Assembly (NCBI GenBank): GCA_016217905.1
Contig: JACRFL010000002.1
Location: 18,817-82,816, forward strand
DNA from: Candidatus Kaiserbacteria bacterium
Lineage (GTDB): Bacteria > Patescibacteriota > Minisyncoccia > Phycocordibacterales > Phycocordibacteraceae
DNA length: 64,000 nt
Direction: 5' to 3'
The position numbers and the translations under genes were made by a program. The notes under the pieces were generated by a model, which saw only the letters and a program-made list of their open reading frames with translations, was not told where the DNA came from and made no database searches. Of the stretch, positions 23,886 through 62,518 are shown in pieces (the stretch's first letter is position 1; each line of letters starts with the position of its first letter).

Positions 23886-23939
23886 TCACCACGCGAAGTG
23901 GGCGAAGGCCTTGTTGGCGTCGGCCATGCGGTGCATCAT
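23886..23939. repeat. Relic duplicate of the rpsG 3' end (54 nt; about 48/54 identical to 24563..24616, all differences synonymous or in the stop codon)
   Basis: The minus-strand reading gives MMHRMADANKAFAHFAW*. The genuine S7 C-terminus is EMHRMADANKAFAHFAW*. Confidence 0.75.
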
Positions 23940-24172
23940 TTGCCTTGCAACAATTTCAAAAATTCATCCGCTGATATTTTCGCCTGCCTAAGAATGCTGG
24001 CCAAGTCCTTGCGTGATATATCGCGCGAATGACGCGGCACCGTTGCAAATCGTGTCGGATCAGCGGCGTGCCGTAGAAATACGTGACTTCCCTTCTGTCT
24101 AATAATCGTGAACCCCGCCTTAAGGAGCGCGGCGATGATTGTCGCCGCACGAAGCATCGGCAAAATGCTCAT
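23936..24172 (-). CDS. hicA: HicA-family toxin (mRNA interferase)
   Basis: LLKAGFTIIRQKGSHVFLRH...TVPRHSRDISRKDLASILRQAKIS matches the HicA consensus (..GF...RQKGSH......G...TVP.H...L..G.L.SIL.QAGL). Confidence 0.8.
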   Translation of the reverse strand: MSILPMLRAATIIAALLKAGFTIIRQKGSHVFLRHAADPTRFATVPRHSRDISRKDLASILRQAKISADEFLKLLQGK

Positions 24173-24468
24173 GCGTATACGGTAACTGGACCGGCTATTC
24201 TTGCAGTTTTACCCTTTCCGGTTATGTGTCCTTCATCATCAATAACTATTTTTCCGTCATCGAATGCAATTTCGCACAGTCCTTCAATAAGGTCATTCGC
24301 CATGTATTTTGCGTCAGCAAGAGTGGAACCTTGCGTCATTGTTTTTTGAAAGCTTGGGACTTCTACAAGATATAATTTGTCAGACCGGTCATACCATATG
24401 AGCGCATTAAAAATGCCATATTTAGTCTTGATAAGATATTTCCTTTTCATCCGCCAAGTATAGCACAA
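24169..24468 (-). CDS. hicB: HicB-family antitoxin (N-terminal RNase H-like HicB domain)
   Basis: KYLIKTKYGIFNALIWYDRSDKLYLVEVPSFQKTMTQGSTLADAKYMANDLIEGL is close to the HicB N-domain consensus. Overlaps hicA by 4 nt. Start may be the internal MKRKYL. Confidence 0.65.
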   Translation of the reverse strand: MCYTWRMKRKYLIKTKYGIFNALIWYDRSDKLYLVEVPSFQKTMTQGSTLADAKYMANDLIEGLCEIAFDDGKIVIDDEGHITGKGKTARIAGPVTVYA

Positions 24469-25028: not shown

Positions 25029-25442
25029 TTATTTTGCCGACGGGCGCTTCGCGCCGTAGCGCGAGCGGGCGGTGCGGCGCTTCTCGAGACCGCTTGTGTC
25101 GAGCTTGCCGCGCACGATGGTGTACTGCACGCCGATGTCCTTCACCCTGCCGCCGCGAAGCATCACGACCGAGTGTTCCTGGAGATTGTGCCCCTCGCCG
25201 GGAATGTAGGCGGTGACTTCCATCCCGTTGGTGAGGCGGACGCGGGCGATCTTGCGGATGGCGGAGTTCGGCTTCCTCGGAGTCTTGGTAGTCACCTTGG
25301 TGCATACGCCACGCTTAAAAGGCGAAGGATAGTAGGTCGGACGATTCGCGAGCGCATTAAAACCGCGGGCCAAGGCGGGCACGCTCGTCTTCGACGATTT
25401 CGACTTTCGCCCCCTCTTGGAGAGCTGGTTGATGGTGGACAT
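25029..25442 (-). CDS. rpsL: 30S ribosomal protein S12
   Basis: [15 protein letters not shown]...[19 protein letters not shown]...[14 protein letters not shown]. Confidence 0.97.
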
Positions 25443-25572
25443 TTAGAAAAAGAAGACCCGAGGTGGGTCACAAGCAATATAAAGGAATGGTGAGAGGAAT
25501 GCAACTTGGGCAGGCCGTAGGGAAAGTGGTTTGAATCTTTCCCGCATTTTCCTACAGACTACAATCTACTCC

Positions 25573-26235
25573 CTACAAACTATTTTCATCGATCGGCTCG
25601 CGGTAAGGGTCGGACGAGTACGCTCTTGGGAGCGCGGGGTTCGCGGGCGTGACGGGAATCGCGGCGGGGCGGGGCGGGGCGGGAGGTTCTGTCTGCAGTA
25701 TAGGAGGGGCGAATCGCGGTTCCGGAATCCGCGGCGGGACCTTGTTGAACTCGATATGCGGCTCCTCGTGATCCTCGAGCAGCCGGTCGCTCTCCATCGA
25801 CCTCGGAGTTGGGGAGGTCTGACCTTCCCCACTACTCACGGGAGGTTGCGGGGGTTGCGGAATGTAGCGCGGCGCTGGCGCGCTCATCGCCCGCGGCGCC
25901 GAGGGCGGTGCCGCGCCCCTCCGCTCCTCTTCCCGCAGCGGTACGAAGATCTGAGCATTGACATCCTGCACGATGCCGTCGACGGTCTCCCGGTCGAGAT
26001 GTGCCTCCTCGGCAAGCGCCTGAACGAACTCGTCCGGGTTCTCGACACCCATCAGGAGCAACATTATTTCTCGCTCGAGCACGCCGCCCTGATCGATGCG
26101 CAAACCGTACTTGGTCATCATATTCCTTGCGACTGCCGTATATCTCCCCTGCGTGAGATATGTGCGTATCACCGGCGGCAAGGTCTGCATCACTTGCTTG
26201 ACATCATCCTCTAGATTTTGGTTTTGTGGATCCAT
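25573..26235 (-). CDS. Hypothetical protein: globular N-terminal domain of about 105 aa plus a Pro-rich, low-complexity C-terminal half
   Basis: PPxPP-rich tail (APPSAPRAMSAPAPRYIPQPPQPPVSS...). Last gene of the four-gene operon upstream of rpsL. Confidence 0.5.
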   Translation of the reverse strand: MDPQNQNLEDDVKQVMQTLPPVIRTYLTQGRYTAVARNMMTKYGLRIDQGGVLEREIMLLLMGVENPDEFVQALAEEAHLDRETVDGIVQDVNAQIFVPLREEERRGAAPPSAPRAMSAPAPRYIPQPPQPPVSSGEGQTSPTPRSMESDRLLEDHEEPHIEFNKVPPRIPEPRFAPPILQTEPPAPPRPAAIPVTPANPALPRAYSSDPYREPIDENSL

Positions 26236-26252
26236 ACGTAATGTATCTCCGA

Positions 26253-28331
26253 TTACGGCTTTGGGGCTGCGGGTGCAGATGTCTTAGCTCTATCCTCTGC
26301 CTCTTTTTCCTCCCGCGCCATCTCCTTAATAAGTTCCTCCAATTTGTCTTTATTGGGTTTCGAGGTCCTGATTTTCTTAGCCGCCTCCGAACCGCCCGGA
26401 CCAAATAGTGCCCAACCTGCTAGCGAGCCTTCGATATTCTTGGCGTACTGCTCGCGACGGGCTTTTGCGCCAGCGGGCCTGACCTCGCTTTCTTTCTTCG
26501 CCTCGATACTTTTTTCAACATTCGTTTTTGCTTCCGTTGCTTTTGAAAGTTCTTCTTCGGTCTTCGTAACCTTCTCAAGCGCTCTCACGACACCGGCTTC
26601 AGCAGCCATAAGCTTTTCTTGATTTTTCGGGTCTGTGTCCCAATAACGATCCCCCCTCTTTTCTTCCGCAATACGGTCGCGCTCTTTGGTCGCCGTATCG
26701 TGCTCGCTCTTTGCCATATCATGCGAGCCTTGTGCCGTTGTCCGCTTTATTTCTGCATCCTTTATGGCCTTATCCTCTTCCCTCGTATTCTCTGTACGCG
26801 CCGTCTCGCGTCCTGTAAGAGATTTTGCGTACTCTTCGTGTCCCTTAACAGACTTTTCCTGTCGCGCTCGATATCCGCCCTTCTGCGCTGCTCCAGCGTC
26901 AACACCGCCGTATGGCAGTTTCCCTAGTACTCCTGTACCGCGCACGTCAAAACTCGCTTTCGCTCCACGATCGAATGTGCTGGCCAGCAAGCGTCCTCTC
27001 TTAGTTTCGCCCCAGCTGCTTGAACGAACCTTGCGCGAGAGATACTGCGACCCTGCTCCCACCGTAGAGCGCATGCCAAAAGCGGTCGCGCCGAACGTGA
27101 GCTTGCCGGCAAGCTTCGTCGCTCCGGCGGCGCCGAAGGCGGAGATCTTTTTCGAGACGATAACGACCGCGAGGAGGAGTCCCATCGCGACGAGGAAGGA
27201 GAGCATCAGACTCGCGAAGCCAGTCAGATCGTTACCGCCCACAAATCCTGTCCAATCTTTCGTACACGTTGCGCCCGGAGTGGACGGGGCGCAAATGCCG
27301 GTTAAGAAATTGACATCGGTGATGACCGCGAGCGCGATGTAAAGCAGGAGGAGGAGTACCGGCGCGGTGATGGTCTGTTCAAAGAGCGTGCTCCACCACT
27401 TCCCTGCCGAGCTCGCGAGCTTGGGCACCGCGAGCCCGGCGAAGCCGATGGGCGCGATAATAATAAGGAAGAGGAGTATGACAAACCGCGCGATGAGCAC
27501 GAACGCGAGCGAGAACATCACGAATGCCGTGATCAGGAAGAGAATGGTGCCCATAAAGCCGATAATCCAGGAGTTTCCCGATGTGAATACCCCTGTATTC
27601 ACCCTCCCTTGGCCGTAGATACTTTGTAGCCCAATCTGGTCCATAATCTTGTTTGAAATACCTTCGTTTTCGGGCGAGGTATTTAACTTGGCTAAAAAGT
27701 CGGGGGTCACCGGGTTACCGCCGTTAATCTGGGTGAAAAATTGCGTCGCGAAGAGGTTCCCGGTGTCGATAACCGCCTCGGCAAAAAAGAGCGAGAAGTT
27801 GAGGAAGACCGCGGCGACCAAGAGCATCGGGAGCATCTTCTTCCCGTAGCCGAGCCGTTCGGTGTTGAGAATGATGGAGATGCCGACCGCGAGGAAGCCG
27901 AAGATGAGCACGATGTTGCCGATGTCGCGCAGGATTCTCCAGGTGACGCCGACGGCGGAGAGCTTGTTCACGTAGTCCCCCATCGTGACGACGGTGAAGT
28001 ACACCGCGTAATCGAGCGTCATAGCCGCGACACCGACGAGCCACGCGAAGAGGCTCATGATCCAGGTCATAATTTTACCGAACCCCTCGCCAAGATCGCT
28101 GCTCGGCGGGAGCGTGCTCGGCGTTCCGGCGGCGGGGTTACTCTGGCTCACGTAATTCTCCGAAGTTACGCAGGTGCCATCTACCTGGTAGACCCCGCCA
28201 CCGGAGCCCGGTGCGCCCAGATCGCACGCCTGCCCGGGCCGGGGCTCGGCATGCGCGACGGGAGTACCCACGCCCGCCGCACCGACGAGGAGCACAAGAG
28301 CGACGAACGATGATGATAAGAAGCGCCGCAT
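26253..28331 (-). CDS. Large polytopic membrane protein (692 aa): signal peptide, Cys-containing exported N-domain, about 7 TM helices, and a C-terminal Lys/Glu/Arg-rich coiled-coil tail of about 270 aa. Topology resembles VirB6/TrbL-like proteins.
   Basis: N-terminal signal MRRFLSSSFVALVLLVGAAGVGTPVAHA. Multiple hydrophobic helices. Tail KSEHDTATKERDRIAEEKRGDRYW...EELSKATEAKTNVEKSIEAKKESE... ending APAAPKP. No ATPase motifs. Confidence 0.55.
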   Translation of the reverse strand: MRRFLSSSFVALVLLVGAAGVGTPVAHAEPRPGQACDLGAPGSGGGVYQVDGTCVTSENYVSQSNPAAGTPSTLPPSSDLGEGFGKIMTWIMSLFAWLVGVAAMTLDYAVYFTVVTMGDYVNKLSAVGVTWRILRDIGNIVLIFGFLAVGISIILNTERLGYGKKMLPMLLVAAVFLNFSLFFAEAVIDTGNLFATQFFTQINGGNPVTPDFLAKLNTSPENEGISNKIMDQIGLQSIYGQGRVNTGVFTSGNSWIIGFMGTILFLITAFVMFSLAFVLIARFVILLFLIIIAPIGFAGLAVPKLASSAGKWWSTLFEQTITAPVLLLLLYIALAVITDVNFLTGICAPSTPGATCTKDWTGFVGGNDLTGFASLMLSFLVAMGLLLAVVIVSKKISAFGAAGATKLAGKLTFGATAFGMRSTVGAGSQYLSRKVRSSSWGETKRGRLLASTFDRGAKASFDVRGTGVLGKLPYGGVDAGAAQKGGYRARQEKSVKGHEEYAKSLTGRETARTENTREEDKAIKDAEIKRTTAQGSHDMAKSEHDTATKERDRIAEEKRGDRYWDTDPKNQEKLMAAEAGVVRALEKVTKTEEELSKATEAKTNVEKSIEAKKESEVRPAGAKARREQYAKNIEGSLAGWALFGPGGSEAAKKIRTSKPNKDKLEELIKEMAREEKEAEDRAKTSAPAAPKP

Positions 28332-28333
28332 AT

Positions 28334-29995
28334 TTAAGGACCCCCGCCCCCGCCACCAAACGGCGTACAGACCGAGATCTTGAGCGCTTGCGCGTTCGTG
28401 CTGATGAGGTTCATTCGGTCAACCAAGGTACCCCCCGAGACCACGAGCGAGCCCGAGGGACTCGCGGTCGCTTGGCCCGTCGACTGCGCTTCTTGCGTCG
28501 CGCTCGCAATATCGGCCGGAGTGGGCGGTGCGCTCTGGAGCTCCAGAACATCGGCGCCGAGAGTGTTCGTCGCCGCCTGGACCCGTTGCAGGTTCGCGGT
28601 GGCGGTGGCGGCTACTGTCGAAGCGGCAGAGACTTGGGTGAGGACAGGAGCCACCCCGCTCGCGAGTGCCGCCCGTGCCGCGCTCGCTTGCGCCCTTGCG
28701 GTGCTTGCGAAAGCCGGATCCGCGCTCGCGGCTTGCGCGGCGGCGGTGCAGAAATCCGCCAAGTCGGTAACGTTGGTCGACGCCACGTCCGCCGAGGCGG
28801 CGACGGTGTTCCAGGCCGTTTTGTATTGGTTTACGCGGTTTGACGCGCTTGAGACCAGTGTCGCCGTGCTCGCCGCGGCACCCTGAAGCACGGCGGATTC
28901 GACTCCCGCGGAAGACCCTGCCTGAAATGCGGGAGAACTCCCGGCATCAATGAGGCCGCCGGACCCGCGACCGCCAAGGACGTCCTTCGCGAGATTGATA
29001 GTGCCCATGATAGTGGCGATACTGCCTAAAAGCTGACCGAATTGCGTGCCGATATTCCCGATCTGGACGAGCTTATCCTGGCCGCCGCCGAGCGCATGAT
29101 TAAGGCCAGCCGTAATGGTCGACGCCGGCGTCCTGATGGTGCCCGGGGTGCCGTCTTTGTTTGTGCACGGGTCCCCGGGAGCAGTGCCCGGACCTCCGCT
29201 CACATACGCTCCGGTCGTCTCGTCTATGTTGGCTCCATCGCTGCCGGGGCGCTCCGGGCCGCACCACGAGAGGAAGCCTTGGCCCCAATTGAGCTCCGCA
29301 AGCCGCGCGGCGGTCGCCCCCGCGACGAGATTCGCGAGCTGGCTCTGCGAACTCTGGTAGAGGGTATAGGGATTGTTCTGCGGCTCGGTTGTAAGCGCGA
29401 ACCACGCGCGCGCGCCCCCCTGTGACCAGTCCCCATTGAGAAACCCGTTTACATTCGGCGACGCGAGATTAAGCGTGTTTCGATTCGCGGCCAAGAACCC
29501 GGCAGCGCTCGTGTTCTGGACGTAGTTCCTTTGCAATGACGAGGAGATCGATGAGGCGAAGGGCGAAGTTGAATTCCGCCCGAATTGGGCGATGAAGGCG
29601 AATGCCTTCGCGTCTCCGACCTTCCGCTGATTTTCCTGCAAATTCTGCACGAATTGCGTAGAACCGGTCCCGTTTGCGTTGGGCTTAGTGACAAACGCTA
29701 TGACGCCGGCGGTGAGCGCCTTCAGCAGGAGGCCCGACTTGATAAAGGCAATCGGCGCAAGCACGTAGTCGTTGACCTGCTTCGCGACGGTTGCGAGGGT
29801 GGTTATTGGATCCGCGATGGCGGAAATGCCGGTTGCTACGGCGGTTATGGTCTCTTGAACCCAACCAACAGCATCGCCCACAACCACAACTGGAATTGCA
29901 TGCGCTCTCTGCGGCGCAACAAGAAATGCGGAAGGCGCGAGAAGCGCGACTGTGAGAACTGTCGCGAGTATTGAAGCAAGAGGGCGCGTACTCAT
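28334..29995 (-). CDS. Secreted Ala/Ser/Thr/Gly-rich low-complexity protein (553 aa), C-terminus GGGGGGP
   Basis: Signal peptide ending AHA|IP, then over 500 aa of A/S/T/G/Q/N-rich sequence. Start overlaps the upstream gene by 4 nt, and its stop/start junction with the downstream gene is separated by 2 nt. Confidence 0.55.
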   Translation of the reverse strand: MSTRPLASILATVLTVALLAPSAFLVAPQRAHAIPVVVVGDAVGWVQETITAVATGISAIADPITTLATVAKQVNDYVLAPIAFIKSGLLLKALTAGVIAFVTKPNANGTGSTQFVQNLQENQRKVGDAKAFAFIAQFGRNSTSPFASSISSSLQRNYVQNTSAAGFLAANRNTLNLASPNVNGFLNGDWSQGGARAWFALTTEPQNNPYTLYQSSQSQLANLVAGATAARLAELNWGQGFLSWCGPERPGSDGANIDETTGAYVSGGPGTAPGDPCTNKDGTPGTIRTPASTITAGLNHALGGGQDKLVQIGNIGTQFGQLLGSIATIMGTINLAKDVLGGRGSGGLIDAGSSPAFQAGSSAGVESAVLQGAAASTATLVSSASNRVNQYKTAWNTVAASADVASTNVTDLADFCTAAAQAASADPAFASTARAQASAARAALASGVAPVLTQVSAASTVAATATANLQRVQAATNTLGADVLELQSAPPTPADIASATQEAQSTGQATASPSGSLVVSGGTLVDRMNLISTNAQALKISVCTPFGGGGGGP

Positions 29996-31038
29996 GGAGT
30001 CTTGGTCGTCCTGGCCTGCTGCTTATCCTCGACATTCTTCATGATATTCACGAAGGAGGCGCCCGGCGCTCCGGCAGAGAGAGAGACGCCAGTCGCCGCG
30101 TATATCTCGCGGATATGCAGAAACGCCGTTGCGAGAGACTGCGCGGCGTCCGGGTACTGTTCGAGCGCGACGATAGTCGCCAGCGGGTCGTCGTTCACGC
30201 GCGCGAAGTCAGACGTTATCCCGCTTATCCGAATCATGGTATTTACAAGCAGGAGGTCGTCTGCGGCGAGCTCCTGCGGCACAGGGAGCATCGCGAGCCC
30301 CGCCGCGGCATCCCGATACGCCTTCGCTATCGAGGCGATGGATGAAAACGCCGTCGCATCATTTTTCTCAAGCGCGTCCTTCAGATATTCGACCTCGCTT
30401 TTCGAAGTATCGGGTCTGTTCTTCGCGAACACCGCCTCGGCGCTTGTCGCAAACGCCGTGAGAGCGTCTCTTCCCGAGCCGGAGACGGTGATATCCTTCG
30501 CGGATTTGTAATCGGGAGCAATGGCCACCATTGATGAGATCGACCGTATGCTTTCATTCGCGATATTCCGCATGTCCGCTTCGGAGAGATCCGCGCCGCC
30601 GGCAGCCTGTCTCGCCGCGAGATAGAGCGAGAGGAAGCTTTTCGTAAAGGCGTTCGTGAGCGTCCCCTCCGCCGGGGCGGGCGGAAGGCCGTCTGCGTCA
30701 GGGGCGGACGGCGACGAGGTTGCGACAGCAATGTCGGCGATCGCCTTCGGCACGACGAGCCCCTTCGCGACCGCCTGGCCGTCGGTCATGCCGAGACTGA
30801 AGGTGTCGACGATGTTCGGAGAAGTGCCGTAAAGCGCCTCTTCCCAGTCGGGGAGGCCGTCGCCGTCTGAATCTTTCACCGCTATCGCCTGTAAGAGCGC
30901 CGTCTCGGTAGAGGCCTCGGCGACCGAGGGCGACTCGATGCCGCGCGCGAGCAGATACGCTCCGGCAACCAACACTGCCGAGAAAAGAGTTGCGGCCAAG
31001 ACTCGCCAGTTTCGTAGAATCTGCCCCATAGTATTCAT
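29992..31038 (-). CDS. N-terminally membrane-anchored extracytoplasmic protein with a calcium-binding-like DSDGDGLPDWEE motif
   Basis: Single TM (RVLAATLFSAVLVAGAYLLA). DxDxDG-type motif. First gene of the four-gene operon. Start uncertain (ATG at 31038 or 31029, or the upstream start at 31110). Confidence 0.5.
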   Translation of the reverse strand: MNTMGQILRNWRVLAATLFSAVLVAGAYLLARGIESPSVAEASTETALLQAIAVKDSDGDGLPDWEEALYGTSPNIVDTFSLGMTDGQAVAKGLVVPKAIADIAVATSSPSAPDADGLPPAPAEGTLTNAFTKSFLSLYLAARQAAGGADLSEADMRNIANESIRSISSMVAIAPDYKSAKDITVSGSGRDALTAFATSAEAVFAKNRPDTSKSEVEYLKDALEKNDATAFSSIASIAKAYRDAAAGLAMLPVPQELAADDLLLVNTMIRISGITSDFARVNDDPLATIVALEQYPDAAQSLATAFLHIREIYAATGVSLSAGAPGASFVNIMKNVEDKQQARTTKTP

Positions 31039-31079
31039 AGGGAAGTATAGCAGCCGCACCCACACGGAGAAGTAGTTGT

Positions 31080-31832
31080 CTACACTAAGTGGTGCATGAG
31101 GGCAAGCCATGCAGAGAGCGGCAGGTCCTCGGCGCGGGCTTTTTCGGGAATATTTCCTTGCGGAAGACTCGCTTCCGCAAAGTTTTTCCGCACGAATTTC
31201 CGTTTATGCGCGAAGCCGGCGTGCAGAAGCGCGAAAAATCGTTTTTCTTCGGCGCGCGTAGTGAAATTCTTACGAGAAATATCGCGAACGGTGAGCACGG
31301 CAGAATCTACCTTGGGTGCGGGTGCAAAAGCGCCGCGCGGAACGGTGAATTCGTATTTCGGTGTGCCATAGGCCTTTACGGAGAGTGATAAAATGCTTTC
31401 TTTTTTTGAGCGGACAATACGCTCGGCGACCTCCTTCTGCACAAGAAGCGTCATCGCGCTCGGCTGATTGTCCGATTCGAGAAACATGCGGAATATCTCA
31501 CCCGTAAGATAGTATGGAATATTCGCCACGAGAGAGTACCTCTTCGGAAGAGCGGAAATATCAAATGTGCGGATATCACCGTGGACGAGCTCGAGATGGT
31601 CGCTTGCGATTTCATTTTTAAAAGCAATCTGCAGCTTTTCAAAAAGGTCGCGATCCGCCTCAACGGCAATCACCTTCCCCGCCAGTTTCAATAATTCCTT
31701 CGTGAGCATTCCCGTTCCGGGACCGATTTCTAACACGGCCGAGTTCGGCGCGAGTTTAGCCGTGAGTGTGATACGCTCCGCAATGCGCGCGTGCATCAGG
31801 AAGTTCTGCCCTAAAGATTTTTTAGCACCCAT
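31080..31832 (-). CDS. rsmA: 16S rRNA (adenine1518/1519-N6)-dimethyltransferase
   Basis: SLGQNFL, LEIGPGTGMLT and ANIPYY motifs. Confidence 0.9.
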   Translation of the reverse strand: MGAKKSLGQNFLMHARIAERITLTAKLAPNSAVLEIGPGTGMLTKELLKLAGKVIAVEADRDLFEKLQIAFKNEIASDHLELVHGDIRTFDISALPKRYSLVANIPYYLTGEIFRMFLESDNQPSAMTLLVQKEVAERIVRSKKESILSLSVKAYGTPKYEFTVPRGAFAPAPKVDSAVLTVRDISRKNFTTRAEEKRFFALLHAGFAHKRKFVRKNFAEASLPQGNIPEKARAEDLPLSAWLALMHHLV

Positions 31833-31994: not shown

Positions 31995-33926
31995 CTAGGC
32001 CTCAATTACCTCCTCCCCATTCGTCTCGTCGTAGAGCACGAGCGCGCTGTCGATGTCGGAGAGAAACGACGACGGCTCTGCGAAACAGTCGCTGCCGTAG
32101 ATCTTGCGTACGCGCGCGAGAGTGAGGATAAGCCGCTCTTTCGCACGCGTCATCGCGACGTAGAAGAGCCGCCGCTCCTCCTCTTCGTCGCGGTCATCGT
32201 CGCCGCCCACTCCTTCGTGCGGGAAAAGCCCCTCTTCCATGCCGGCGACGAACACCGTATCGAACTCGAGTCCCTTCGCTGCGTGGACGGTCATGAGGGT
32301 GACGCCCGTCTTCCCGTTTTGATCCATCTCGTCCTGGTCGCTCGCAAGCGCCGCCTCTGCGAGGAAGGCAGCGATGCCTTCCTTGCCGGGCGTGGCATCG
32401 TGCCGCGCGGCGACAGACGCGAGCTCTTCGACGTTCTCGAACCGTCCGCGGTCCTCTTCGTTCCCCTCGTCGAGAAGCGCGCGACGCATGCCGCTTTTCT
32501 CGATGACGAGCTTCACGAACTCGGAGGGAGTGAGCGTGTCGGCCACTTGAGAAAGCTCGGCAACAGCGCGCTCGAATTGCTCCACTTTCGCCAATTCGCC
32601 GGCGCGCAATTGCTCCCGCTGCCCTGCGGCGAGCTTGCCGAGCGTCACCTTGCCGATGCCGCGCGGCGGCGCAGAGGCCGCGCGGAGCTTGTCGACCTCT
32701 CTTGAGAGGTCCGTCGCGAGGCGCATCCACGCGAGCGCGTCCTTCACCTCTCTGCGCGAGAAAAAGCGCGTGCCGAGAAGCCGGTACGGCACGCCCGCGC
32801 GCAAGAGTCCTTCTTCGAGGGCGCGGGATTGAAAATTCGTACGGAAAAGTATGGCTATTTCTCCGAGTTTCGCCCCTTGTCTCATCAATTCCCGTATCTT
32901 CGCGGAGATCCAGCGCGCCTCGTCCTCGGCGCTCCGCGCGATATGAACAACAATGGGTTCACCCGCTTCCCGCTCGGTCGTCGAGTTTTTCTCTTTGCGA
33001 TTTTTATTTTTCTCGATGACCGCGTTCGCCGCATCGACGAGATTTTTCGTCGAGCGATAATTGCGCTCAAGAATAATCGTCTGCGATTCCGGGTATCTTT
33101 TTTCAAAGTCTAAAATGTTCTCCATCTTGGCTCCTCTCCATCCGTAAATTGCCTGATCTCCATCTCCCACGACAAAAAGATTTTTGTGTTTCGCCGCGAG
33201 AAGACTTGCGAGTCTTTCTTGCAATTCGTTCGTATCCTGGTACTCGTCGATGTGTATGTAGCGCCAGCGATCCTGCGCTCTCTCGCGAATGTCGGGGTGC
33301 TCTTCAAGGAGGCGCACGGGGAGCGCGATGAGGTCGTCGAAGTCGAGCGCCTTCTCTGCCGCGAGCATTTTCTCGTAACGGAGCCAGGCCTCCGCGGCGA
33401 CGCGCGCGCCAAAGCTGTTCTTCGCATATTTCTCATAAAACTCGTGCGCGCGCATGCCCTCCCCTTTCGCCCGCGAAATGCGGCCGAGGATGGCACGTGG
33501 CGAGAGCTCTTTGGCCCCCACGTCGAGCGCCTTCAGCGCGGCGGCGACCGCTCTCTCCGAATCGTCGCGGTCGTACACGCTGAAGAAGCGCGGGACGCCG
33601 ATGACCTTCCCATAGCTCTCCAGCAGCTCGCGCCCGAGTCCGTGGAACGTCGCCAGAAACGGAGACGAGCCCGGGCTATCGTCGCCGAGCATCGCACGGA
33701 CGCGCTCGCGCATCTCGCGGGCGGCTTTATTGGTGAAAGTAACGGCAAGGATCTCCTCGGCGTGGACGCCGCTCCGTATGAGGTGGTAGACCCGCGTCGT
33801 GAGCACGCGCGTTTTCCCGGCTCCGGCGCCGGCGAGGACGGACACGGGTCCGTCGAGGGCCACGATCGCGCGCTTCTGTGCTTCGTTCAATCCGTCGAGA
33901 TAGTTCACCGTCCGAATATAGCGCAC
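31995..33926 (-). CDS. UvrD/PcrA/Rep-family ATP-dependent DNA helicase
   Basis: Walker A GAGAGKTRVLTTR, a DEYQDTN-type motif and the helicase motifs of superfamily 1A. Confidence 0.85.
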   Translation of the reverse strand: MRYIRTVNYLDGLNEAQKRAIVALDGPVSVLAGAGAGKTRVLTTRVYHLIRSGVHAEEILAVTFTNKAAREMRERVRAMLGDDSPGSSPFLATFHGLGRELLESYGKVIGVPRFFSVYDRDDSERAVAAALKALDVGAKELSPRAILGRISRAKGEGMRAHEFYEKYAKNSFGARVAAEAWLRYEKMLAAEKALDFDDLIALPVRLLEEHPDIRERAQDRWRYIHIDEYQDTNELQERLASLLAAKHKNLFVVGDGDQAIYGWRGAKMENILDFEKRYPESQTIILERNYRSTKNLVDAANAVIEKNKNRKEKNSTTEREAGEPIVVHIARSAEDEARWISAKIRELMRQGAKLGEIAILFRTNFQSRALEEGLLRAGVPYRLLGTRFFSRREVKDALAWMRLATDLSREVDKLRAASAPPRGIGKVTLGKLAAGQREQLRAGELAKVEQFERAVAELSQVADTLTPSEFVKLVIEKSGMRRALLDEGNEEDRGRFENVEELASVAARHDATPGKEGIAAFLAEAALASDQDEMDQNGKTGVTLMTVHAAKGLEFDTVFVAGMEEGLFPHEGVGGDDDRDEEEERRLFYVAMTRAKERLILTLARVRKIYGSDCFAEPSSFLSDIDSALVLYDETNGEEVIEA

Positions 33927-34106: not shown

Positions 34107-35201
34107 ATGCCGCAGGGCACGAGGCTGGATACATACAAAACAGCCCGACAGCTCGCGCTGCTTGCGCTGGGGTTTGCGGTCGGCGTGATCGCTTCTTCTT
34201 TTATACCCGACAAGGCGCGCGCCTTCTGGCCTTTTTCTACAAACGCGGATGCCGCCACTGTGGCGAGCTTCCCGCACCAGTCGAGTTCGGAGATCTACGT
34301 ACGGGCCGCGGTCAATATCGATCCGAATCCGAACAAGGGCCTTAGCGGCATCCAGACGAGCGGCGGTCGCGCGCTGCTTGCGTATGGCGGCCCTTCCGGA
34401 ACGATAGCCGACGTCGCGGGCAGAGCATCGTCCGACCGCATCTCCGTGTACGTCGTGCGCGAAGGCGACACGCTCTCGGACATTGCGAACATGTTCGGCG
34501 TCTCGGTGAACACCCTCTTCTGGGCGAACGACCTCAAGAGCGTCCGCGACGTGCACCCCGGCGATACGCTCGTCATCCTTCCCGTCTCGGGTGTCGAGCA
34601 TGTCGTCAAGAAAGGCGATACGCTCAAGTCGATTGCAAAGAAATACAGCGCCGACGCGGACGACATCGCCCAGTTTAACGGCCTCGACCCTGATGCGGCG
34701 CTTGAGGTCGGTTCGACCATCATCGTCCCCGGCGGCGAGATCGTATCGCCCGCGCCGCGCTCCTCCTCTCCCTCCTCCGTCCGCGAACCGTACCTGGGCG
34801 GCGGCGGCTCCGTTCGACCAGGCTACTATGGCAACACGGTCGAGGGCGGCGTCATCACGCAGGGTATTCATGGCTGGAACGCGGTGGACATCGGAGCGGC
34901 ACGCGGCACGCCGATATACGCGGCCGCGGACGGTATCGTCACCGTGGCACGCAGCAACGGCGCCTGGAACGGCGGCTACGGCAACTACGTGGTCATCACG
35001 CACGGCAACGGCACGCAGACGCTCTACTCGCACATGAGAAACGCGGTCGTTTCGTCCGGTCAGACGGTGTCGTCGGGACAGATCATCGGGTACGTCGGAT
35101 CGACCGGCCTCTCCACCGGCGCGCATCTCCACTTCGAAGTGCGCGGCGCGGCTAATCCGTTCCGCAATTGCCGCGTCGGCAGTGTGTGCTCGCCGCAATA
35201 A
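34107..35201 (+). CDS. LysM-domain M23-family peptidoglycan endopeptidase
   Basis: Two LysM repeats (YVVREGDTLSDIANMFGVSVNTLFWAN...; HVVKKGDTLKSIAKKYSADADDIAQFNGL). An M23 core (GIDIGAARGTPIYAAADGIV...GNYVVITHGNG..TLYSHM......G..V..GQ.IGYVGSTGLSTGAHLHFEV). Confidence 0.85.
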   Translation: MPQGTRLDTYKTARQLALLALGFAVGVIASSFIPDKARAFWPFSTNADAATVASFPHQSSSEIYVRAAVNIDPNPNKGLSGIQTSGGRALLAYGGPSGTIADVAGRASSDRISVYVVREGDTLSDIANMFGVSVNTLFWANDLKSVRDVHPGDTLVILPVSGVEHVVKKGDTLKSIAKKYSADADDIAQFNGLDPDAALEVGSTIIVPGGEIVSPAPRSSSPSSVREPYLGGGGSVRPGYYGNTVEGGVITQGIHGWNAVDIGAARGTPIYAAADGIVTVARSNGAWNGGYGNYVVITHGNGTQTLYSHMRNAVVSSGQTVSSGQIIGYVGSTGLSTGAHLHFEVRGAANPFRNCRVGSVCSPQ

Positions 35202-35249: not shown

Positions 35250-36830
35250 TTATTCGAATCCGAAGAGGCCTCGCGGACGGTACTGGAGCGCCTCGTGCAC
35301 AAAGGAGGGCGTAACAACATCGGCGCCGCATAGGTCGGCGATGGTGCGTGCGACGCGCATGGTGCGGTGGAAACTCCTCGGCGAGAGCGAGAGACGGGCG
35401 GCCGCCGAGGTGAGAGCTTCTTTTGCGGCTGTAGTGAAGCCGCTCTTTTCATCGAGCTCCCTGCCCGAAAGCGCCGCATTCGTCGCGCCCGGTCTCCCGG
35501 CGCGCTTCTGCGCCCTCGCGCGCGCCGCGACGACGCGCGCCCGCACCGCCTCGGAGGCTTCGCCGCTGCCGAGCTTCGCGAGTGTGTCGTGCGGGACGAG
35601 CGGCACCTCGATCCAGAGGTCGAGCCGGTCGACGATGGGGCGCGAAATGCGGCGCGCCTGTTTCGCCGCGGCGCGCAGCGCGACGCGCGCGTCGTTGGAC
35701 AGGGTGTCCGCGGGATTCATCGCCGCGACGATCATGCAGTCGGCCGGGAACGTGATCGTCGCACGCGCACGTGACACCGTAACGATGCGGTCCTCGAGCG
35801 GCTGCCGGAGCGCCTCGAGCGTCCGCGAGTCGAACTCGGGAAATTCGTCCAGAAAAAGGACGCCCTTGTGCGCGAGCGTCACCTCCCCCGCCTTGGGGAA
35901 GGTGCCCCCGCCGACGATAGCGACATGCGATATCGAATGGTGCGGAGCGCGAAACGGCGGCCAGTGAACCGCCTCTCCTCCCTGCAGGAGCCCGGCGGTC
36001 GAGTGTATCGCGGTCACTTCGAGCACCTCGTCGTCGGAGAGCGGCGGGAGGATGCCGGCGAGCGCGCGGGCGAGCATCGTCTTCCCCGTTCCCGGCGGAC
36101 CGTAGAAAACGATGTTGTGCCGCCCCGCCGCGGCAATTTCCAAAGCACGCTTCGCGCTCTCCTGTCCTTTGATATCGCTAAGGTCGATCGCGGGTGGCGG
36201 CAGTTCTGCTCGGCGATCGCGCAAGAGGCGCGGAAGCGGCCTCTCGCCCTTCATATGATGTAGCAGTTCGGCGAGCGATGTCGGCGCATAGACAGCAACG
36301 CCCTCGGCGAGAAGCGCTTCGCGGGAGTTTCCCGGCGGGACGAAAACGGTCTTTGTTCCGCGCCGCTTCGCGGCGAGCACCTGCGGGAGGACGCCGCGCA
36401 CGGCGCGCAGCGAACCGTCGAGCGCGAGTTCCCCGATGAGCAACATCTCTTCCGCAGGCGGTGATACGTCGCCCGCAGCGATAAGGTACGCGAGCGCGAG
36501 CGCGAGATCGTAGTGCGAACCCTCTTTCTTCAAATCCGCTGGCGAGAGGGAGAGAACGATGCGTTTATTCTGCTGCTTCGGCGGCTTGTAACCGGAGTGG
36601 CGTATTGCGGCGCTGATCCTGTCGCGAGCCTCCTCAACCGCCTTGTCGGCGAGACCGACGACCGCGAAATTGTGCAATCCGCGCGTGAGATCCGCCTCGA
36701 CATTGACCAGCTCCGCTCCCGAGCCGACCGGCTGCGCGGCGAGCGTTTTCGCGTAACCGAGTTTCGGCAATGAGCGAGCGGTCGGAGAAGGCGCGCGAAC
36801 CGATGCGGATTTCGGCCGTGCCGCGTTCAT
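35250..36830 (-). CDS. comM: YifB/ComM-family Mg-chelatase-like AAA+ ATPase
   Basis: N-terminal ComM/Lon-like domain, Walker [12 protein letters not shown], sensor motifs and the C-terminal Mg-chelatase subunit ChlI domain. Confidence 0.85.
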
Positions 36831-50352: not shown

Positions 50353-50381
50353 TTGACAATCAATAAACCAAGGAATACAAT
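50353..50381 (+). promoter_or_regulatory. Consensus-like sigma70 promoter TTGACA-17 bp-TACAAT for the island gene
   Basis: TTGACA at 50353..50358 and TACAAT at 50376..50381. The -10 element overlaps the annotated ATG, so the true start may be downstream or the transcript leaderless. Confidence 0.35.
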
Positions 50382-51417
50382 GGCCTTAATGAATCGAGAA
50401 ACTGAGGTATTACAGCTGGCAAAGCTGAAAAAAAGACTGAAAACTATGGATATTATGGATTCCTTTGGGATCTCGAGACAATATGCCGTTGTCCTAGTCA
50501 ACGACCTAATATCAAAAGGTAAATTGGTTAAGGTTGGTTCAACAAATAGAGCTTACTATTTGTTACCAGAATCAGCCGACGAGGCCGGGGCATTCCCTAC
50601 ACGGATTTCTAAACGGCTAAAAAATGTAGGGCTCCAAGAGCACGAAATTTATGAAGATATTCAAAACCAATATCCTCCCGTCAAACGCGTTTCTGAAAAT
50701 GTCAGAAGTATTTTTAATTACGCATTCTCTGAAATATTAAACAACGCAATTGAGCACTCGCAATCAAAATATATAGAAGTTGAGGTATCTGTTCAAAACC
50801 GCAAATTGCGTTTTATCATCAACGATTTCGGAATCGGCGTGTTTCGTAACATCATGAAAGAAAAAGGATTGAGAACAGAAGTGGAGGCAATGCAGGACTT
50901 GCTGAAAGGAAAGACCACCACGATGCCGAAATCTCATTCAGGTCAAGGCATATTCTTTACGTCAAAGGCGGCCGATGTGTTTACACTTCAAAGCTACGGA
51001 TATATTTTAACGATAAATAACAAGATACACGAGGTCTCATATAAAATCCTTCCCGCTCTTAAAAGAGGTACGCGAGTTAGTTTTTCAATTGACGTTAATT
51101 CCCCGCGACATCTGAGCGTTATCTTTAGGAAATTCAGTGTCGGTACAGAATTTGCATTCAACAAAACAGAAATAAAAGTGAAGTTGTACGCTTCTGGCGA
51201 CGGAATCCACGTATCCAGATCTCAGGCACGACGTATTTTGGAAGGATTAGATAAATTTGAATCTATAATTCTCGATTTCGATAAGGTGCCGACAATTGGA
51301 CAAGCGTTTGCAGATGAAGTTTTCAGGGTTTTTAAAGAAAAGTATCCAAATATTGAAATCCAACCAGTAAACATGGATGACGCAGTTCGTTTTATGGTCG
51401 AAAGAGTCGGTAAATAG
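50380..51417 (+). CDS. Winged-helix HTH + GHKL-type (HATPase_c, anti-sigma/serine-kinase-like) ATPase + C-terminal STAS-like (DUF4325-like) domain protein
   Basis: N-box E..NNAIEHS. G1 box INDFGIGV. G2 box SGQGIFF. N-terminal wHTH (LQLAKLKKRLKTMDIMDSFGISRQYAVVLVNDLISKGKLVKV). C-terminal about 90 aa domain. AAGGAA RBS. Confidence 0.6.
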   Translation: MALMNRETEVLQLAKLKKRLKTMDIMDSFGISRQYAVVLVNDLISKGKLVKVGSTNRAYYLLPESADEAGAFPTRISKRLKNVGLQEHEIYEDIQNQYPPVKRVSENVRSIFNYAFSEILNNAIEHSQSKYIEVEVSVQNRKLRFIINDFGIGVFRNIMKEKGLRTEVEAMQDLLKGKTTTMPKSHSGQGIFFTSKAADVFTLQSYGYILTINNKIHEVSYKILPALKRGTRVSFSIDVNSPRHLSVIFRKFSVGTEFAFNKTEIKVKLYASGDGIHVSRSQARRILEGLDKFESIILDFDKVPTIGQAFADEVFRVFKEKYPNIEIQPVNMDDAVRFMVERVGK

Positions 51418-55019: not shown

Positions 55020-56768
55020 ATGCACGTTTCGGAAGGAGAACTGAAAGAGTTCATCATCGATTCGGGCCTCGTCGCTAAGAAAGATATCGACACGGCGGAT
55101 CTTGAGGCGAAAGAGCGCGGACAATCGCTCGGCGACATCCTTGTCTCTCGCGGCTCCCTGACCGAAGACGCGCTCCGGCGCATCCAGGCGTACGTGCTTG
55201 GCATTCCTTTTGTGAACCTGAAAGAGCATCGCGTGCCAGCCGACGTTCTCGCCCTCATCCCCGAGCCGATCGCGCGCACGCATAACATTATCGCCTATAA
55301 GAGAGAGGGGGATTCCCTTGACGTGGCGATGCTCGATACCGAGGACCTCGCGTCGATCGATTCGGTGCGGAAAAAGACCGGATTCAAGATATTGCCGCGG
55401 CTCACCGACACCGAGAGCATCAAATATACGCTCCTTCAGTATCAGAAGTCGCTCAAGGACGAATTCGGGGACATCATCTCGACCGAAGCGGGGAAGATCC
55501 GCGTTGTCGCAGAGGGCGGGAAGGATCTCTCGGGCGACGAACTCAAGAAGATCGCCGAAGACTTGCCGATCGTGCGTATCGTCGACACGCTCCTGCGACA
55601 CGCCATCGTGCAAGACGCTTCCGATATTCACATCGAGCCCATGGAAACCGAGGTGCTCGTCCGCTATCGCATCGACGGCATCCTGCACGACGCCATGACG
55701 CTTCCGAAAACCGCCGCCGCTGGCATCGTCGCGCGCATCAAGGTGCTCGCGAACCTGAAGCTCGACGAGAAGCGCTTGCCGCAGGACGGCCGCTTCAAGA
55801 TGGAGACCGAGGCCGACCGCGTGTCCTTCCGCGTCTCGATCCTTCCCACCTTCTTCGGCGAGAAAACCGTCATGCGCCTTTTGCGCGAAACAGGGGAGGG
55901 CTTCACGCTCGATGTGCTCGGGCTCCACGGCGAGAACATGGAGCGCATTCATCATGCGCTCAAGCAGACGACCGGGATTATCCTCATCAGCGGACCGACC
56001 GGAAGCGGCAAGACCACGACCTTGTATACGATGCTCGACATCCTGAACCAGCCGGACGTGAACATCTCGACCGTCGAGGATCCGATCGAGTATCAGATGA
56101 AGCGCGTCAACCAGACACAGGTGAATCCGCAGATAGGGTTCACCTTCGCGAACGGGCTCCGCTCGCTCGTGCGCCAGGACCCGGACATCATCATGGTCGG
56201 CGAGATCCGCGACGGCGAGACCGCGTCGCTCGCTATTAATGCCGCGCTGACCGGCCACCTGGTGCTCTCTACCATCCACACCAACAGCGCGGCGGGCGCC
56301 ATTCCGCGGCTGATCGATATGGGCGTCGAGCCGTTCCTTCTCGCTTCCACCATCCGCGTTATCGTCGGGCAGCGATTGGTCCGTAGGCTCTGCGAGGGCA
56401 AGGAAGCGTATGCGATGGACAAAGCCATGCGCGCGAAGATTGCAGCAGATGAGGAATTCGCCACCGTCTTCAGGGTTCTTCAGGAGGAGAAGTTGGTAAA
56501 AAAAGGCTCCGCTATCGACGATATTTCTTTCTATCGGCCCGTTCCTTCGGTCGAGTGCGAGGATGGCTATAAGAGCCGCATCGGCATCCACGAGGTGCTC
56601 GCGGTATCGCCGACTATTCGCGAGATCATGCTCCACACAAGCACGAGCGACGCGCTCGAGGAACAGGCGCGGAAGGAGGGCATGCTCACGATGTTCGAGG
56701 ACGGCCTCTACAAGGCCGCCCGCGGCATCACGAGCATTGAAGAGGTGCTGCGCGCGATAACCGAATGA
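55020..56768 (+). CDS. pilB: Type IV pilus assembly / type II secretion ATPase (GspE/PilB family)
   Basis: N-terminal GSPII-E domain. Walker A GPTGSGKTTTLY. Asp box, Walker B and His box. CxxC-less tetracysteine-like region. Confidence 0.9.
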   Translation: MHVSEGELKEFIIDSGLVAKKDIDTADLEAKERGQSLGDILVSRGSLTEDALRRIQAYVLGIPFVNLKEHRVPADVLALIPEPIARTHNIIAYKREGDSLDVAMLDTEDLASIDSVRKKTGFKILPRLTDTESIKYTLLQYQKSLKDEFGDIISTEAGKIRVVAEGGKDLSGDELKKIAEDLPIVRIVDTLLRHAIVQDASDIHIEPMETEVLVRYRIDGILHDAMTLPKTAAAGIVARIKVLANLKLDEKRLPQDGRFKMETEADRVSFRVSILPTFFGEKTVMRLLRETGEGFTLDVLGLHGENMERIHHALKQTTGIILISGPTGSGKTTTLYTMLDILNQPDVNISTVEDPIEYQMKRVNQTQVNPQIGFTFANGLRSLVRQDPDIIMVGEIRDGETASLAINAALTGHLVLSTIHTNSAAGAIPRLIDMGVEPFLLASTIRVIVGQRLVRRLCEGKEAYAMDKAMRAKIAADEEFATVFRVLQEEKLVKKGSAIDDISFYRPVPSVECEDGYKSRIGIHEVLAVSPTIREIMLHTSTSDALEEQARKEGMLTMFEDGLYKAARGITSIEEVLRAITE

Positions 56769-56769
56769 T

Positions 56770-57984
56770 ATGAAATTCCGCGTCACGATACGCAAAGAAG
56801 GGGCGCCGGACGCCGTGCGCGTACTTGAGGCGCCGTCGCGTTTCGCGATATACGAACAGGTCCAAAAAGACGGCGGAGTCGTCGTCGAGCTCTCCGAAGG
56901 CGAAGGAAGATTCAAACTTCCTGCGTGGCTCTCTTACAGCATCGGCTCCGGCGTGAAGCATGCGGAAATAATCCGGGTGGCGAGAAATCTCTCCGCGATG
57001 CTCGCCGCCGGCCTCTCGCTCTCCAGAGCGCTCTCGGTCATTGAGCGGCAATCAAACAACAAGCACCTCAAAGCGATTATGACCGGGCTGTCCGAGTCGA
57101 TAAAGAAGGGGTCGTCGTTCAACGAGGCGCTCTCCGCGTATCCGAAGGTCTTCCCCGCGCTCTTCATCGCGATGGCGCGTGCGGGAGAAGAGTCGGGGTC
57201 TCTTTCCGACGCGCTTTCCGTCGTCGGGCTCCAGATGGAGCGCTCGGAGGAGCTCGCGCGCAAAGTCAGGGGTGCGATGATCTATCCGTCGATCGTCATT
57301 TCCGCCGTCTTCATCGTAGGCGTCTTGATGCTCATCTACGTCGTCCCGACCCTGACGAGCACGTTCACGTCGCTGGGCGTGCAGATTCCGCTCGCCACCC
57401 GCATTATCGTCGGCCTATCCGATTTCATGGTGGCGCACGTTACCACGGTGATCATTGCGCTCATCGCGCTCGTTACCGGCGGCGTCGCGTTCGTCCGGTC
57501 GCGCCGCGGCAGCCGCATCGTGATCGCGGTCGCGCTCCACGTACCCGTCATCGGCGAACTCGTGCGCGAGACGTACGCGGCGCGCGCCTCCCGCACGCTC
57601 TCTTCGCTCCTTTCCTCCGGCGTGCCAGTCCTTGATGCACTTTCCATAACGAAAGACGTCGTGCGCGCCGAAGCGTTCGCAAGGGTCGTCGGAGAAGCGG
57701 AGGAGCTCGTCAAGAAGGGCGAGCTGCTCTCGGCGTCTTTCGCACAACATGCGAATCTTTACCCGATCTTGATGAGCGACATGCTTACGGTCGGCGAGGA
57801 GACCGGGAAGGTCGCGGAGATGCTGAAGCAGATCGCAGAATTCTACGAGGGCGATGTCGCAGAACGCACGAAAGACCTCTCGACGATCATCGAACCGATC
57901 CTGATGCTCATCATCGGGACGTTCGTCGGCATTTTCGCCGTCTCGATGATTGCCCCGATTTACTCGCTTTCATCGGCAATCTGA
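56770..57984 (+). CDS. pilC: Type IV pilus / T2SS platform protein (GspF/PilC family)
   Basis: Two T2SSF repeats, 3 TM helices; immediately follows pilB. Confidence 0.9.
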   Translation: MKFRVTIRKEGAPDAVRVLEAPSRFAIYEQVQKDGGVVVELSEGEGRFKLPAWLSYSIGSGVKHAEIIRVARNLSAMLAAGLSLSRALSVIERQSNNKHLKAIMTGLSESIKKGSSFNEALSAYPKVFPALFIAMARAGEESGSLSDALSVVGLQMERSEELARKVRGAMIYPSIVISAVFIVGVLMLIYVVPTLTSTFTSLGVQIPLATRIIVGLSDFMVAHVTTVIIALIALVTGGVAFVRSRRGSRIVIAVALHVPVIGELVRETYAARASRTLSSLLSSGVPVLDALSITKDVVRAEAFARVVGEAEELVKKGELLSASFAQHANLYPILMSDMLTVGEETGKVAEMLKQIAEFYEGDVAERTKDLSTIIEPILMLIIGTFVGIFAVSMIAPIYSLSSAI

Positions 57985-59696: not shown

Positions 59697-59701
59697 ATCC
59701 C

Positions 59702-60307
59702 ATGCGCTTTACTTTTTATACCCGCGGATTCACCCTCATCGAGACGCTCGTCGTCGCGGCGCTCACGGCTATCGTGACGGTCGCGCTGGGCGGGCTCATT
59801 CAGTATTTCTATAAAACCAATGCCTACGTGCTCGAGCAGACACAGGCCACCGAGAGCGCCCGCCGCAGCATCGAGAGCGCGATGGCGGATCTGCGCGAGG
59901 CTTCTTACGGAGCCGACGGCTCCTATCCGCTTATGGCGGCGGCGACGTCGAGCGTTACCTTCTATGCCAACATTGACAGCGACACGGCGATCGAAAGGGT
60001 TCGCTACTACTTGTCGGGAACGACGCTCTACCGCGGCACCACGAAGGCTTCCGGAAACCCGCCCTCCTATGCGGGACAACCCGAGGTCGCGACGCTTGTG
60101 GTCGACAACATCCGCAACGGAACAAGCACGCTCTTTTCTTATTTTGATTCGGCCGGCAACCAGCTTTCCGACCCTATCAACATATCCCTGGTCGCTTCGG
60201 CGAAAGCGCGCGTGATGACCGACGTGAACCCGAACCGCGCGCCGGAGATATTCACGCTCACCGGCAACGCGACATTAAGGAACGTGCGCAGTACAATAAA
60301 GCCATGA
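59702..60307 (+). CDS. Type IV pilin (prepilin with canonical G|FTLIE N-terminus)
   Basis: MRFTFYTRGFTLIETLVVAALTAIVTVALGG. Confidence 0.8.
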   Translation: MRFTFYTRGFTLIETLVVAALTAIVTVALGGLIQYFYKTNAYVLEQTQATESARRSIESAMADLREASYGADGSYPLMAAATSSVTFYANIDSDTAIERVRYYLSGTTLYRGTTKASGNPPSYAGQPEVATLVVDNIRNGTSTLFSYFDSAGNQLSDPINISLVASAKARVMTDVNPNRAPEIFTLTGNATLRNVRSTIKP

Positions 60308-61737: not shown

Positions 61738-61772
61738 CGCTTCGCGCGGATGGGGGCTGCTATACTTTCCCC

Positions 61773-62516: not shown

Positions 62517-62518
62517 CG

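Follow-up and report, generated by a model that had tools for sequence, protein, structure and literature searches.

A four-gene operon beside the str operon of a Kaiserbacteria genome is probably the detached membrane half of a Patescibacteria type IV secretion system

Results

Layout of the operon

The stretch of DNA analysed here (64,000 nucleotides of contig JACRFL010000002.1 from a Candidatus Kaiserbacteria bacterium, assembly GCA_016217905.1, positions 18,817 to 82,816; hereafter the window) holds four minus-strand genes, A to D, placed between rsmA and rpsL. It is likely that these genes are the membrane and surface half of the known type IV secretion system (T4SS) of Patescibacteria, which is split here from its ATPase half. 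A first-pass annotation, made from the letters, had described the same genes as an uncharacterised cell-surface apparatus. All four open reading frames (ORFs) are indeed present, with the start of A probably at 31038 and not at 31110. The operon and the genes that border it are as follows.

29992..31038, minus strand: gene A, 348 amino acids (aa) from the likely start; the ORF reaches 31110
28334..29995, minus strand: gene B, 553 aa, secreted
26253..28331, minus strand: gene C, 692 aa, an "extended" VirB6/TrbL-like polytopic membrane subunit
25573..26235, minus strand: gene D, 220 aa, cytoplasmic
31080..31832, minus strand: rsmA/ksgA, 16S rRNA dimethyladenosine transferase (PF00398, RrnaAD), directly upstream of A
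25029..25442, minus strand: rpsL, which opens the str operon (rpsL, rpsG, a HicAB-like pair, fusA)

The orthologues of A open with MG(Q/R)IL or MNTMG, and because of these N-termini the true start of A is probably M25 of the ORF. With the start at 31038, the rsmA stop codon and A are separated by 41 nucleotides (nt) and do not overlap. The remaining junctions were read directly. The A/B junction is a true ATGA overlap, as claimed earlier, whereas B and C, also said to overlap, are separated by a 2-nt spacer (TAA-AT-ATG). The C/D junction is a 17-nt spacer with GGAG inside.

The gap between D and rpsL is 130 nt long. A short GC-rich hairpin followed by a T-run is found in it (25455-25469, minus strand), ~12 nt before the rpsL start codon; it could be a terminator or attenuator parting the operon from str, or a chance match. 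A-D may be co-expressed with the str operon, perhaps at the high constitutive level suggested in the first-pass annotation, but in view of the length of this gap and of the hairpin with its T-run, co-transcription is not to be taken as given. The AT-rich gap upstream of rsmA likely bears a promoter. In an Rfam scan tRNAs were the only RNA family detected.

Conservation and the two arrangements downstream of D

One genome per GTDB species was scanned, which gave 80 loci, and the window proteins were compared with them by tblastn. The order uvrD-rsmA-A-B-C-D is kept almost everywhere, and nearly all of the 80 related species genomes contain the A-D block. Among the loci long enough to judge, all from different GTDB species, the succession A<B<C<D is found in 60 of 63, a linkage far beyond chance, and in 57 of 62 rsmA is located no more than 1.5 kb upstream of A. 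The first-pass annotation had named the absence of this linkage from any other genome as an argument against its proposal, and that is clearly not what the loci show. In most of them the identity to the window is 45-64% for A, 31-54% for B, 39-60% for C and 26-70% for D; it drops to ~30% in the five most distant ones (L076-L080).

What follows D takes one of two forms. In 58 loci, as in the window, D is followed by rpsL-rpsG-fusA. In seven (L063, L070 and L076-L080) it is followed by a set of T4SS genes, which encode in this order a PrgI-family (VirB3-like) protein (PF12666, E 1e-8), a TraC-like protein of 213 aa (PF26593), a VirB4 ATPase of 604 aa (TraG P-loop, E 4.5e-25; AAA_10), two unnamed proteins, a T4SS pilin-domain protein (PF18895), and one more unnamed protein. 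L076-L080 are distant Paceibacterota, L063 is titled Candidatus Kaiserbacteria, and L070, the C protein of which is 51% identical to that of the window, has a record titled Saccharibacteria. The titles "uncultured Candidatus Saccharibacteria" of many third-party-annotated metagenome-assembled genomes (L006, L008, L009, L013 and others) look taxonomically wrong; these genomes contain the Kaiserbacteria/Paceibacteria-type locus, and their rpsL, rpsG and fusA show at least 90% identity.

Since A-B-C-D are contiguous with the T4SS set in seven genomes, A-D constitute the proximal part of one T4SS locus. The breakpoint is marked by rpsL, the place of which after D is taken in these genomes by the PrgI-VirB4 half. 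In the lineage of the window the locus has been split, and A-D stays behind rsmA and now abuts rpsL-rpsG-fusA.

The ATPase half appears to be still present in relatives with the split layout, two of which were read on contigs of matching size and five of which are indicated by the contig size alone. For seven VirB4 homologues the longest contig has the same number of base pairs as one carrying A-D or a C homologue. Six of the sizes correspond to A-D-rpsL loci that were read (993452, L034; 159247, L021; 108147, L049; 175952, L059; 79063, L050; 122653, L036), and the seventh (360455 bp) to a C homologue with layout not read. If the size-matched records are one contig in the same orientation, the VirB4 half would lie tens of kb from A-D. 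The two VirB4 halves that were read (L083, 8937-15809; L085, 8915-15479) have the succession PrgI, TraC-like, VirB4, two unnamed genes, pilin and one unnamed gene, and adjoin yidC-rnpA(-rpmH) and dnaA-dnaN, by the presumed replication origin. A ComEC-like competence gene is located a few kb upstream. VirB4 is ~80-90% identical across these lineages. The composition by which T4SS loci of Patescibacteria are recognised, VirB4 with PrgI and TrsD/TraC-like neighbours, is thus found both in the orthologous loci and in those of the split genomes.

These observations bear on the view that A-D form an envelope apparatus of their own, which would attach to the host or take up material without an ATPase, share with T4SSs no more than an ancestral VirB6-like membrane protein, and be driven by co-expression with str. 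No T4SS ATPase gene occurs in the 25 kb downstream of the operon or in the 33 kb upstream of it, A-D has remained intact beside rpsL in 58 species after parting from the VirB4 half (so separate regulation is possible), and A, B and D belong to no known T4SS family. We nevertheless regard this view as improbable, given that A-D is contiguous with PrgI-VirB4-pilin in the seven relatives, one of them a Kaiserbacteria, that the seven VirB4 orthologues lie on contigs matching those of A-D or C homologues in size, and that the high identity of VirB4 points to continued function. Dispersed T4SS genes also have a precedent, e.g. in Rickettsia (cited in PMC12102498). The statement of the first-pass annotation that no ATPase is nearby is literally correct for the window and yet misleading; the stand-alone apparatus that it proposed gives way to an assignment to the T4SS, an outcome that it had itself named as decisive against the proposal.

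The split could also be taken as a sign of decay, A-D being a non-functional remnant of a broken T4SS locus, and D, the least conserved of the four proteins, was not detected in 3 of the 63 loci. Of all the explanations weighed here we find this one the hardest to accept. The ORFs of A, B and C are full-length in essentially all loci and the translational coupling is kept. The four proteins retain dozens of invariant positions despite pairwise identities down to 25-30%, and the B family alone comprises more than 1800 clusters at E<=1e-10.

A mobile conjugative element (an integrative and conjugative element or a plasmid remnant) inserted beside the str operon for DNA transfer is very improbable as well. 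It would agree with the closest solved fold of C, which comes from the T4SS of a conjugative plasmid (see below), and with the label "conjugal transfer protein TraC" that the databases give to the VirB4 orthologues. In more than 60 species, however, the operon has a fixed place between rsmA and rpsL or PrgI, and it resembles the window in G+C content (0.55-0.63 vs ~0.6). The neighbours with families read are housekeeping genes, none of them a relaxase or integrase, and no relaxase or VirD4 family was found among the neighbour genes read in the window and its relatives. Relaxases are absent from most T4SS loci of Patescibacteria (PMC12102498), and a relaxase-free locus with housekeeping neighbours (ksgA, dnaA, rnpA) is what we observe among the genes read.

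Gene C

The C protein is 100% identical to the hypothetical protein HY972_00835 of a Candidatus Kaiserbacteria metagenome-assembled genome (B matches HY972_00840 of the same genome), and more than 500 homologues are found in Paceibacteria-type Patescibacteria. It consists of a signal peptide, a variable exported N-terminal segment, about seven transmembrane helices (residues 87-392), a conserved juxtamembrane cytoplasmic region (residues ~393-500), and a variable Lys/Glu coiled-coil, the Lys/Glu-rich helical tail as a whole spanning ~393 to 692. The hydropathy scan shows six peaks in 87-392, of which the stretch 253-302 is probably two helices, hence the number of about seven; long helices are found at the positions of the peaks in the AlphaFold2 model. 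C is thus predicted to be polytopic with at least five transmembrane helices, as is expected of VirB6/TrbL proteins. The signal peptide, the helices and the tail had been described correctly in the first-pass annotation, whereas the Cys of the exported segment, on which it had also remarked, is not conserved.

The AlphaFold2 model, calculated with 40 homologues, has a mean predicted local distance difference test (pLDDT) value of 70, and mostly 75-85 in the membrane domain. When this model was compared with the PDB in Foldseek, the top five matches were all TrwI chains of the R388 plasmid (8rtd_L, 8rt9_F, 7o3v_F/G/J), with probability up to 0.99 and target TM-score up to 0.49; the E values (~0.1-0.8) are not significant alone. 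The modelled structure shows that C has a VirB6-like fold as in TrwI. Among 40 orthologues of C the only recurrent Pfam families are TrbL (PF04610), matched by eight with a best E value of 1.1e-4 (22.5 bits vs the cut-off of 25.9), and TrbL_4, matched by four with a best E value of 4.7e-6 (26.6 bits vs 27).

Several results weigh against the assignment of the operon to the T4SS. All the TrbL and TrbL_4 matches are below the gathering score, and the C protein of the window has neither a Pfam match at E<=1 nor an NCBIfam match. A profile search of the PDB sequences with C misses TrwI, and the alignment of the C family with three VirB6 sequences in hhalign is not significant (E 0.21), which is weak negative evidence given the narrow template (Agrobacterium, Sinorhizobium and Acetobacter). 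The best stretch of this alignment, C 289-331 (IAPIGFAGLAVP..A..WW), falls on the conserved GP...G....A.KW of VirB6 and overlaps the part of the membrane domain covered by the Pfam TrbL matches. In the window itself no VirB4, PrgI or pilin gene, nor their usual neighbours, were found by tblastn; the large ORFs at 37-62 kb encode a CCA-adding enzyme, a protease, MgsA, RNase Y, NusA and PilB/PilC. Finally, the roles proposed for A, B and D are based only on their position and predicted location.

The lines of evidence for C being a VirB6 protein are soft singly and convincing jointly with the gene context. The likeness to VirB6, TrbL or ConG suggested in the first-pass annotation is therefore supported by the TrwI fold matches, by the sub-threshold TrbL matches in the orthologues and by the genes that accompany the operon in its relatives. 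The operon is most likely a member of the already described T4SS of Patescibacteria and not a new kind of system.

Gene B

B begins with a Sec-type signal peptide ending ...AHA|IP and is composed to 47% of Ala, Gly, Ser and Thr. That it is secreted and rich in these residues had been recognised before; it is, however, not mere low complexity, as ~35 positions of its N-terminal half are invariant and four Cys are conserved (C245 and C543 are invariant, C277 and C416 nearly so). The N-terminal domain carries the motifs SPF..Y, GDWSQGG..WFALT..NNPY, GQGFLSWCG and PGDPCT..DGTPG.I.TPGS. The GGGGGGP tail, to which the first-pass annotation had drawn attention, is not conserved among the orthologues. 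In the model just the C-terminal ~180 residues (about 370-550), a long helical bundle, are confident.

The family is large, with 2769 clusters at 50% identity and E<=1e-3, of which 1893 are at E<=1e-10. In a profile search of representatives the 150 matches listed are all close relatives, and B matches no named family. Two long members (P0402, 860 aa; P0428, 936 aa) show weak, sub-threshold matches to Peptidase_M15_4 (VanY-like, E ~1e-3), in a segment inserted within the N-terminal domain; this gives a slight hint at a link to the cell wall.

B stands directly upstream of C (stop codon 2 nt before the C start), where virB5/trbJ stands before virB6/trbL, and the order of virB5 and virB6 on Ti-type plasmids equals that of B and C. 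In many B orthologues the signal peptide is followed by GDIVFDPTN, a sequence similar to QFVVSDPATE of Agrobacterium VirB5. Because of this N-terminal likeness and of the position before the VirB6 gene, homology between B and VirB5 was tested, and it is not supported: the alignment of the B family with VirB5 in hhalign has a probability of 5%, with the signal-peptide region alone aligned. No Pfam T4SS or VirB5 match occurs in 38 members of the B family, the family profile finds coiled-coil or other noise only among the PDB sequences, and the predicted fold of B matches generic helical bundles as well as it matches the three-helix bundle of TraC/VirB5. The analogy between B and VirB5 is thus positional only.

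Genes A and D

The N-terminus of A is a hydrophobic membrane anchor or a long signal peptide. Next come two repeats of the TSP3 calcium-binding type (KDSDGDGLPDWEEALYG..DT..GMTDG) and a linker rich in Pro, and then a conserved Ala/Leu-rich extracytoplasmic domain of ~220 aa. An N-terminal anchor with a calcium-binding-like motif had been noted before, and both are borne out here, the latter as the TSP3-type motif DSDGDGLPDWEE. Residues D56, D60, G61 and W65 are invariant, and the second repeat is clear in distant orthologues (DTDGDGxSD). The Pfam profile TSP3_bac (PF18884) matches 25 of 34 A orthologues with a best E value of 3.2e-9, while the A protein of the window, taken alone, gives E 6.6e-4 and falls under the cut-off; by the profile, A belongs among the proteins with predicted bacterial TSP3 calcium-binding repeats. 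The ~220-aa domain has no sequence relative in Pfam or, with the A family profile, among the PDB sequences.

D has no hydrophobic segment and contains 16% Pro, in agreement with the cytoplasmic protein with a Pro-rich tail of the first-pass annotation. After a conserved N-terminal domain of ~105 aa comes a disordered, Pro-rich stretch, variable but for short conserved motifs (LLEDHEEPHIEF; in orthologues PPNLPG), and the C-terminus carries an invariant DPYRE motif (DPYREP in most). No sequence match was found in Pfam or the PDB, also with the family profile. This pattern of short motifs would suit an adaptor that binds its partners through short linear motifs.

Searches of the four window proteins against Pfam, NCBIfam and PHROGs gave nothing significant except TSP3 in A. 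The earlier remark that none of them matches a nameable family still applies to A (apart from TSP3), B and D, while C can now be assigned as VirB6-like.

Further features of the window

Three more genes lie upstream of rsmA.

31995..33926: UvrD-type helicase
34107..35201, plus strand: LysM and M23 peptidase, ~3 kb upstream of the operon and on the strand opposite to it
35250-36830, minus strand: ComM/Mg-chelatase-like ATPase

The LysM and Peptidase_M23 gene and the ComM/Mg-chelatase-like ATPase gene keep their place upstream of uvrD-rsmA-A-D in L001. The peptidase may be a cell-wall-opening, VirB1-analogous partner of the T4SS; VirB1-type matches with M23/LysM domains have been described (PMC12102498).

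Within the str operon, a HicA-like gene (23936-24172, with KGSHVFLRH) and a HicB-like gene (24169-24468), both on the minus strand, form a toxin-antitoxin pair between rpsG and fusA; in most related loci rpsG and fusA are near each other, with varying spacing. An ORF of 354 aa at 50353-51417 (plus strand) lies in a block with a G+C content of 0.47 (0.38 at third positions) vs ~0.6 for the window, and is possibly foreign DNA. A type IV pilus gene cluster occupies 55020-63685 of the plus strand. It starts with the PilB/T2SSE ATPase (55020-56768; PF00437, E 8.8e-126), PilC/T2SSF (56770-57984) and a 570-aa protein with a C-terminal CarboxypepD_reg domain (57984-59696), after which further ORFs follow.

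Discussion

Proposed working of the system

By analogy with the R388 system, C would oligomerise in the cytoplasmic membrane and form a platform for the assembly of the VirB2-like pilin and for the passage of substrates. The VirB4 ATPase, tethered by PrgI, would dock under C and energise the process from the cytoplasm, and the juxtamembrane region and coiled-coil tail of C would contact the ATPase complex. B, exported by the Sec route and stabilised by disulfides, would be placed on the outer face of C, where VirB5 stands in diderm systems; it may act as a stalk, a tip, or an element that spans the cell wall and contacts the host. On the same analogy A may be a membrane-anchored calcium-binding scaffold in the wall zone, and D a cytoplasmic adaptor that would bind VirB4, the tail of C or another partner through its DPYRE-type and other short motifs. 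As judged from Southlakia epibionticum, the machine would probably serve to interact with the host, to export proteins or to display a pilus, and not to conjugate.

A bolder proposal takes A, B and D as unrecognised core subunits and the whole as a new Paceibacteria T4SS architecture, in which a disulfide-bonded B replaces VirB5 atop the extended VirB6, D docks by means of its DPYRE-type motif, and the VirB6 module, joined to the str operon, is regulated separately. B may in this case carry a cell-wall hydrolase insert in some lineages and contact the host cell. We look upon this proposal as possible but rather doubtful. The likely assignment, that of A-D to the membrane and surface half of the known T4SS, leaves as matters of interest the split of the locus and three conserved partner proteins without family; B, A and D are candidates for the extracellular and adaptor parts.

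Few envelope machines have been shown to be indispensable to a cultivated patescibacterium in its epibiotic life, and the T4SS is among them; outside Saccharimonadia its composition is known only from profile matches around virB4. Searches that take virB4 as their centre and reach ±20 genes would overlook the block of VirB6 and its three partners in the split lineage.

Comparison with known systems

A chromosomal T4SS akin to the monoderm MPF_FATA type has been described across Patescibacteria, with VirB3/PrgI, TrsD, VirB4, VirB6 and VirB2-like pilins and with KsgA, dnaA, dnaN and rnpA as frequent neighbours of virB4; most of its VirB6 matches were obtained with the MPF_T VirB6 profile rather than with PrgH (Quinonero-Coronel et al. 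2025, PMC12102498). The system presented here has the same components (PrgI/VirB3, TrsD/TraC-like, VirB4, a VirB6-like protein and a VirB2-like pilin), is likewise chromosomal and usually relaxase-free, and shares KsgA, dnaA and rnpA as neighbours. In contrast to it, the VirB6 block, together with A, B and D, lies here apart from the VirB4 block and directly against the str operon, and the named components do not include A, B or D. A literature search gave no description of a VirB6 block against the str operon, nor of A, B and D.

In Southlakia epibionticum the T4SS (SEML1_0006-0019) is essential for epibiotic growth (Wang et al. 2023, PMC10633639) and has no recognisable relaxase or coupling protein. 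Its SEML1_0013 is a TrbL/VirB6-like protein of 1088 aa (PMC10633639), and C resembles it in being long with a helical C-terminal extension. Two proteins, one NTF2-like (VirB8-like) and one of 998 aa, are encoded between VirB6 and PrgI in Southlakia, whereas in Paceibacteria D alone is found there. The C-terminal hydrophilic extension of C, ~300 aa in length, fits the "extended VirB6" type, which is defined by large C-proximal hydrophilic domains (PMC12857230).

The best structural match of the membrane domain of C is TrwI/VirB6 of the R388 stalk, where it occurs with TrwJ/VirB5 (7O3V, 8RT9, 8RTD), and the gene of a secreted helical protein directly upstream of the VirB6 gene recalls the virB5-virB6 pair. 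C shares, however, just 10-16% identity with TrwI, is 2.6 times longer, and has in addition a signal peptide, an extra exported N-terminal segment and a ~300-aa cytoplasmic tail. B (553 aa) differs from VirB5 (~220 aa) in length and shows no significant sequence or profile similarity to it. In respect to the envelope, the host is, unlike that of R388, monoderm, and there is no outer-membrane core complex. PrgH of pCF10, ConG of ICEBs1 and TcpH of pCW3 are polytopic VirB6-like proteins of monoderm envelopes with large extra hydrophilic domains, and their genes stand together with those of VirB3-like proteins, VirB4 and cell-wall hydrolases; by this description they are comparable to C.

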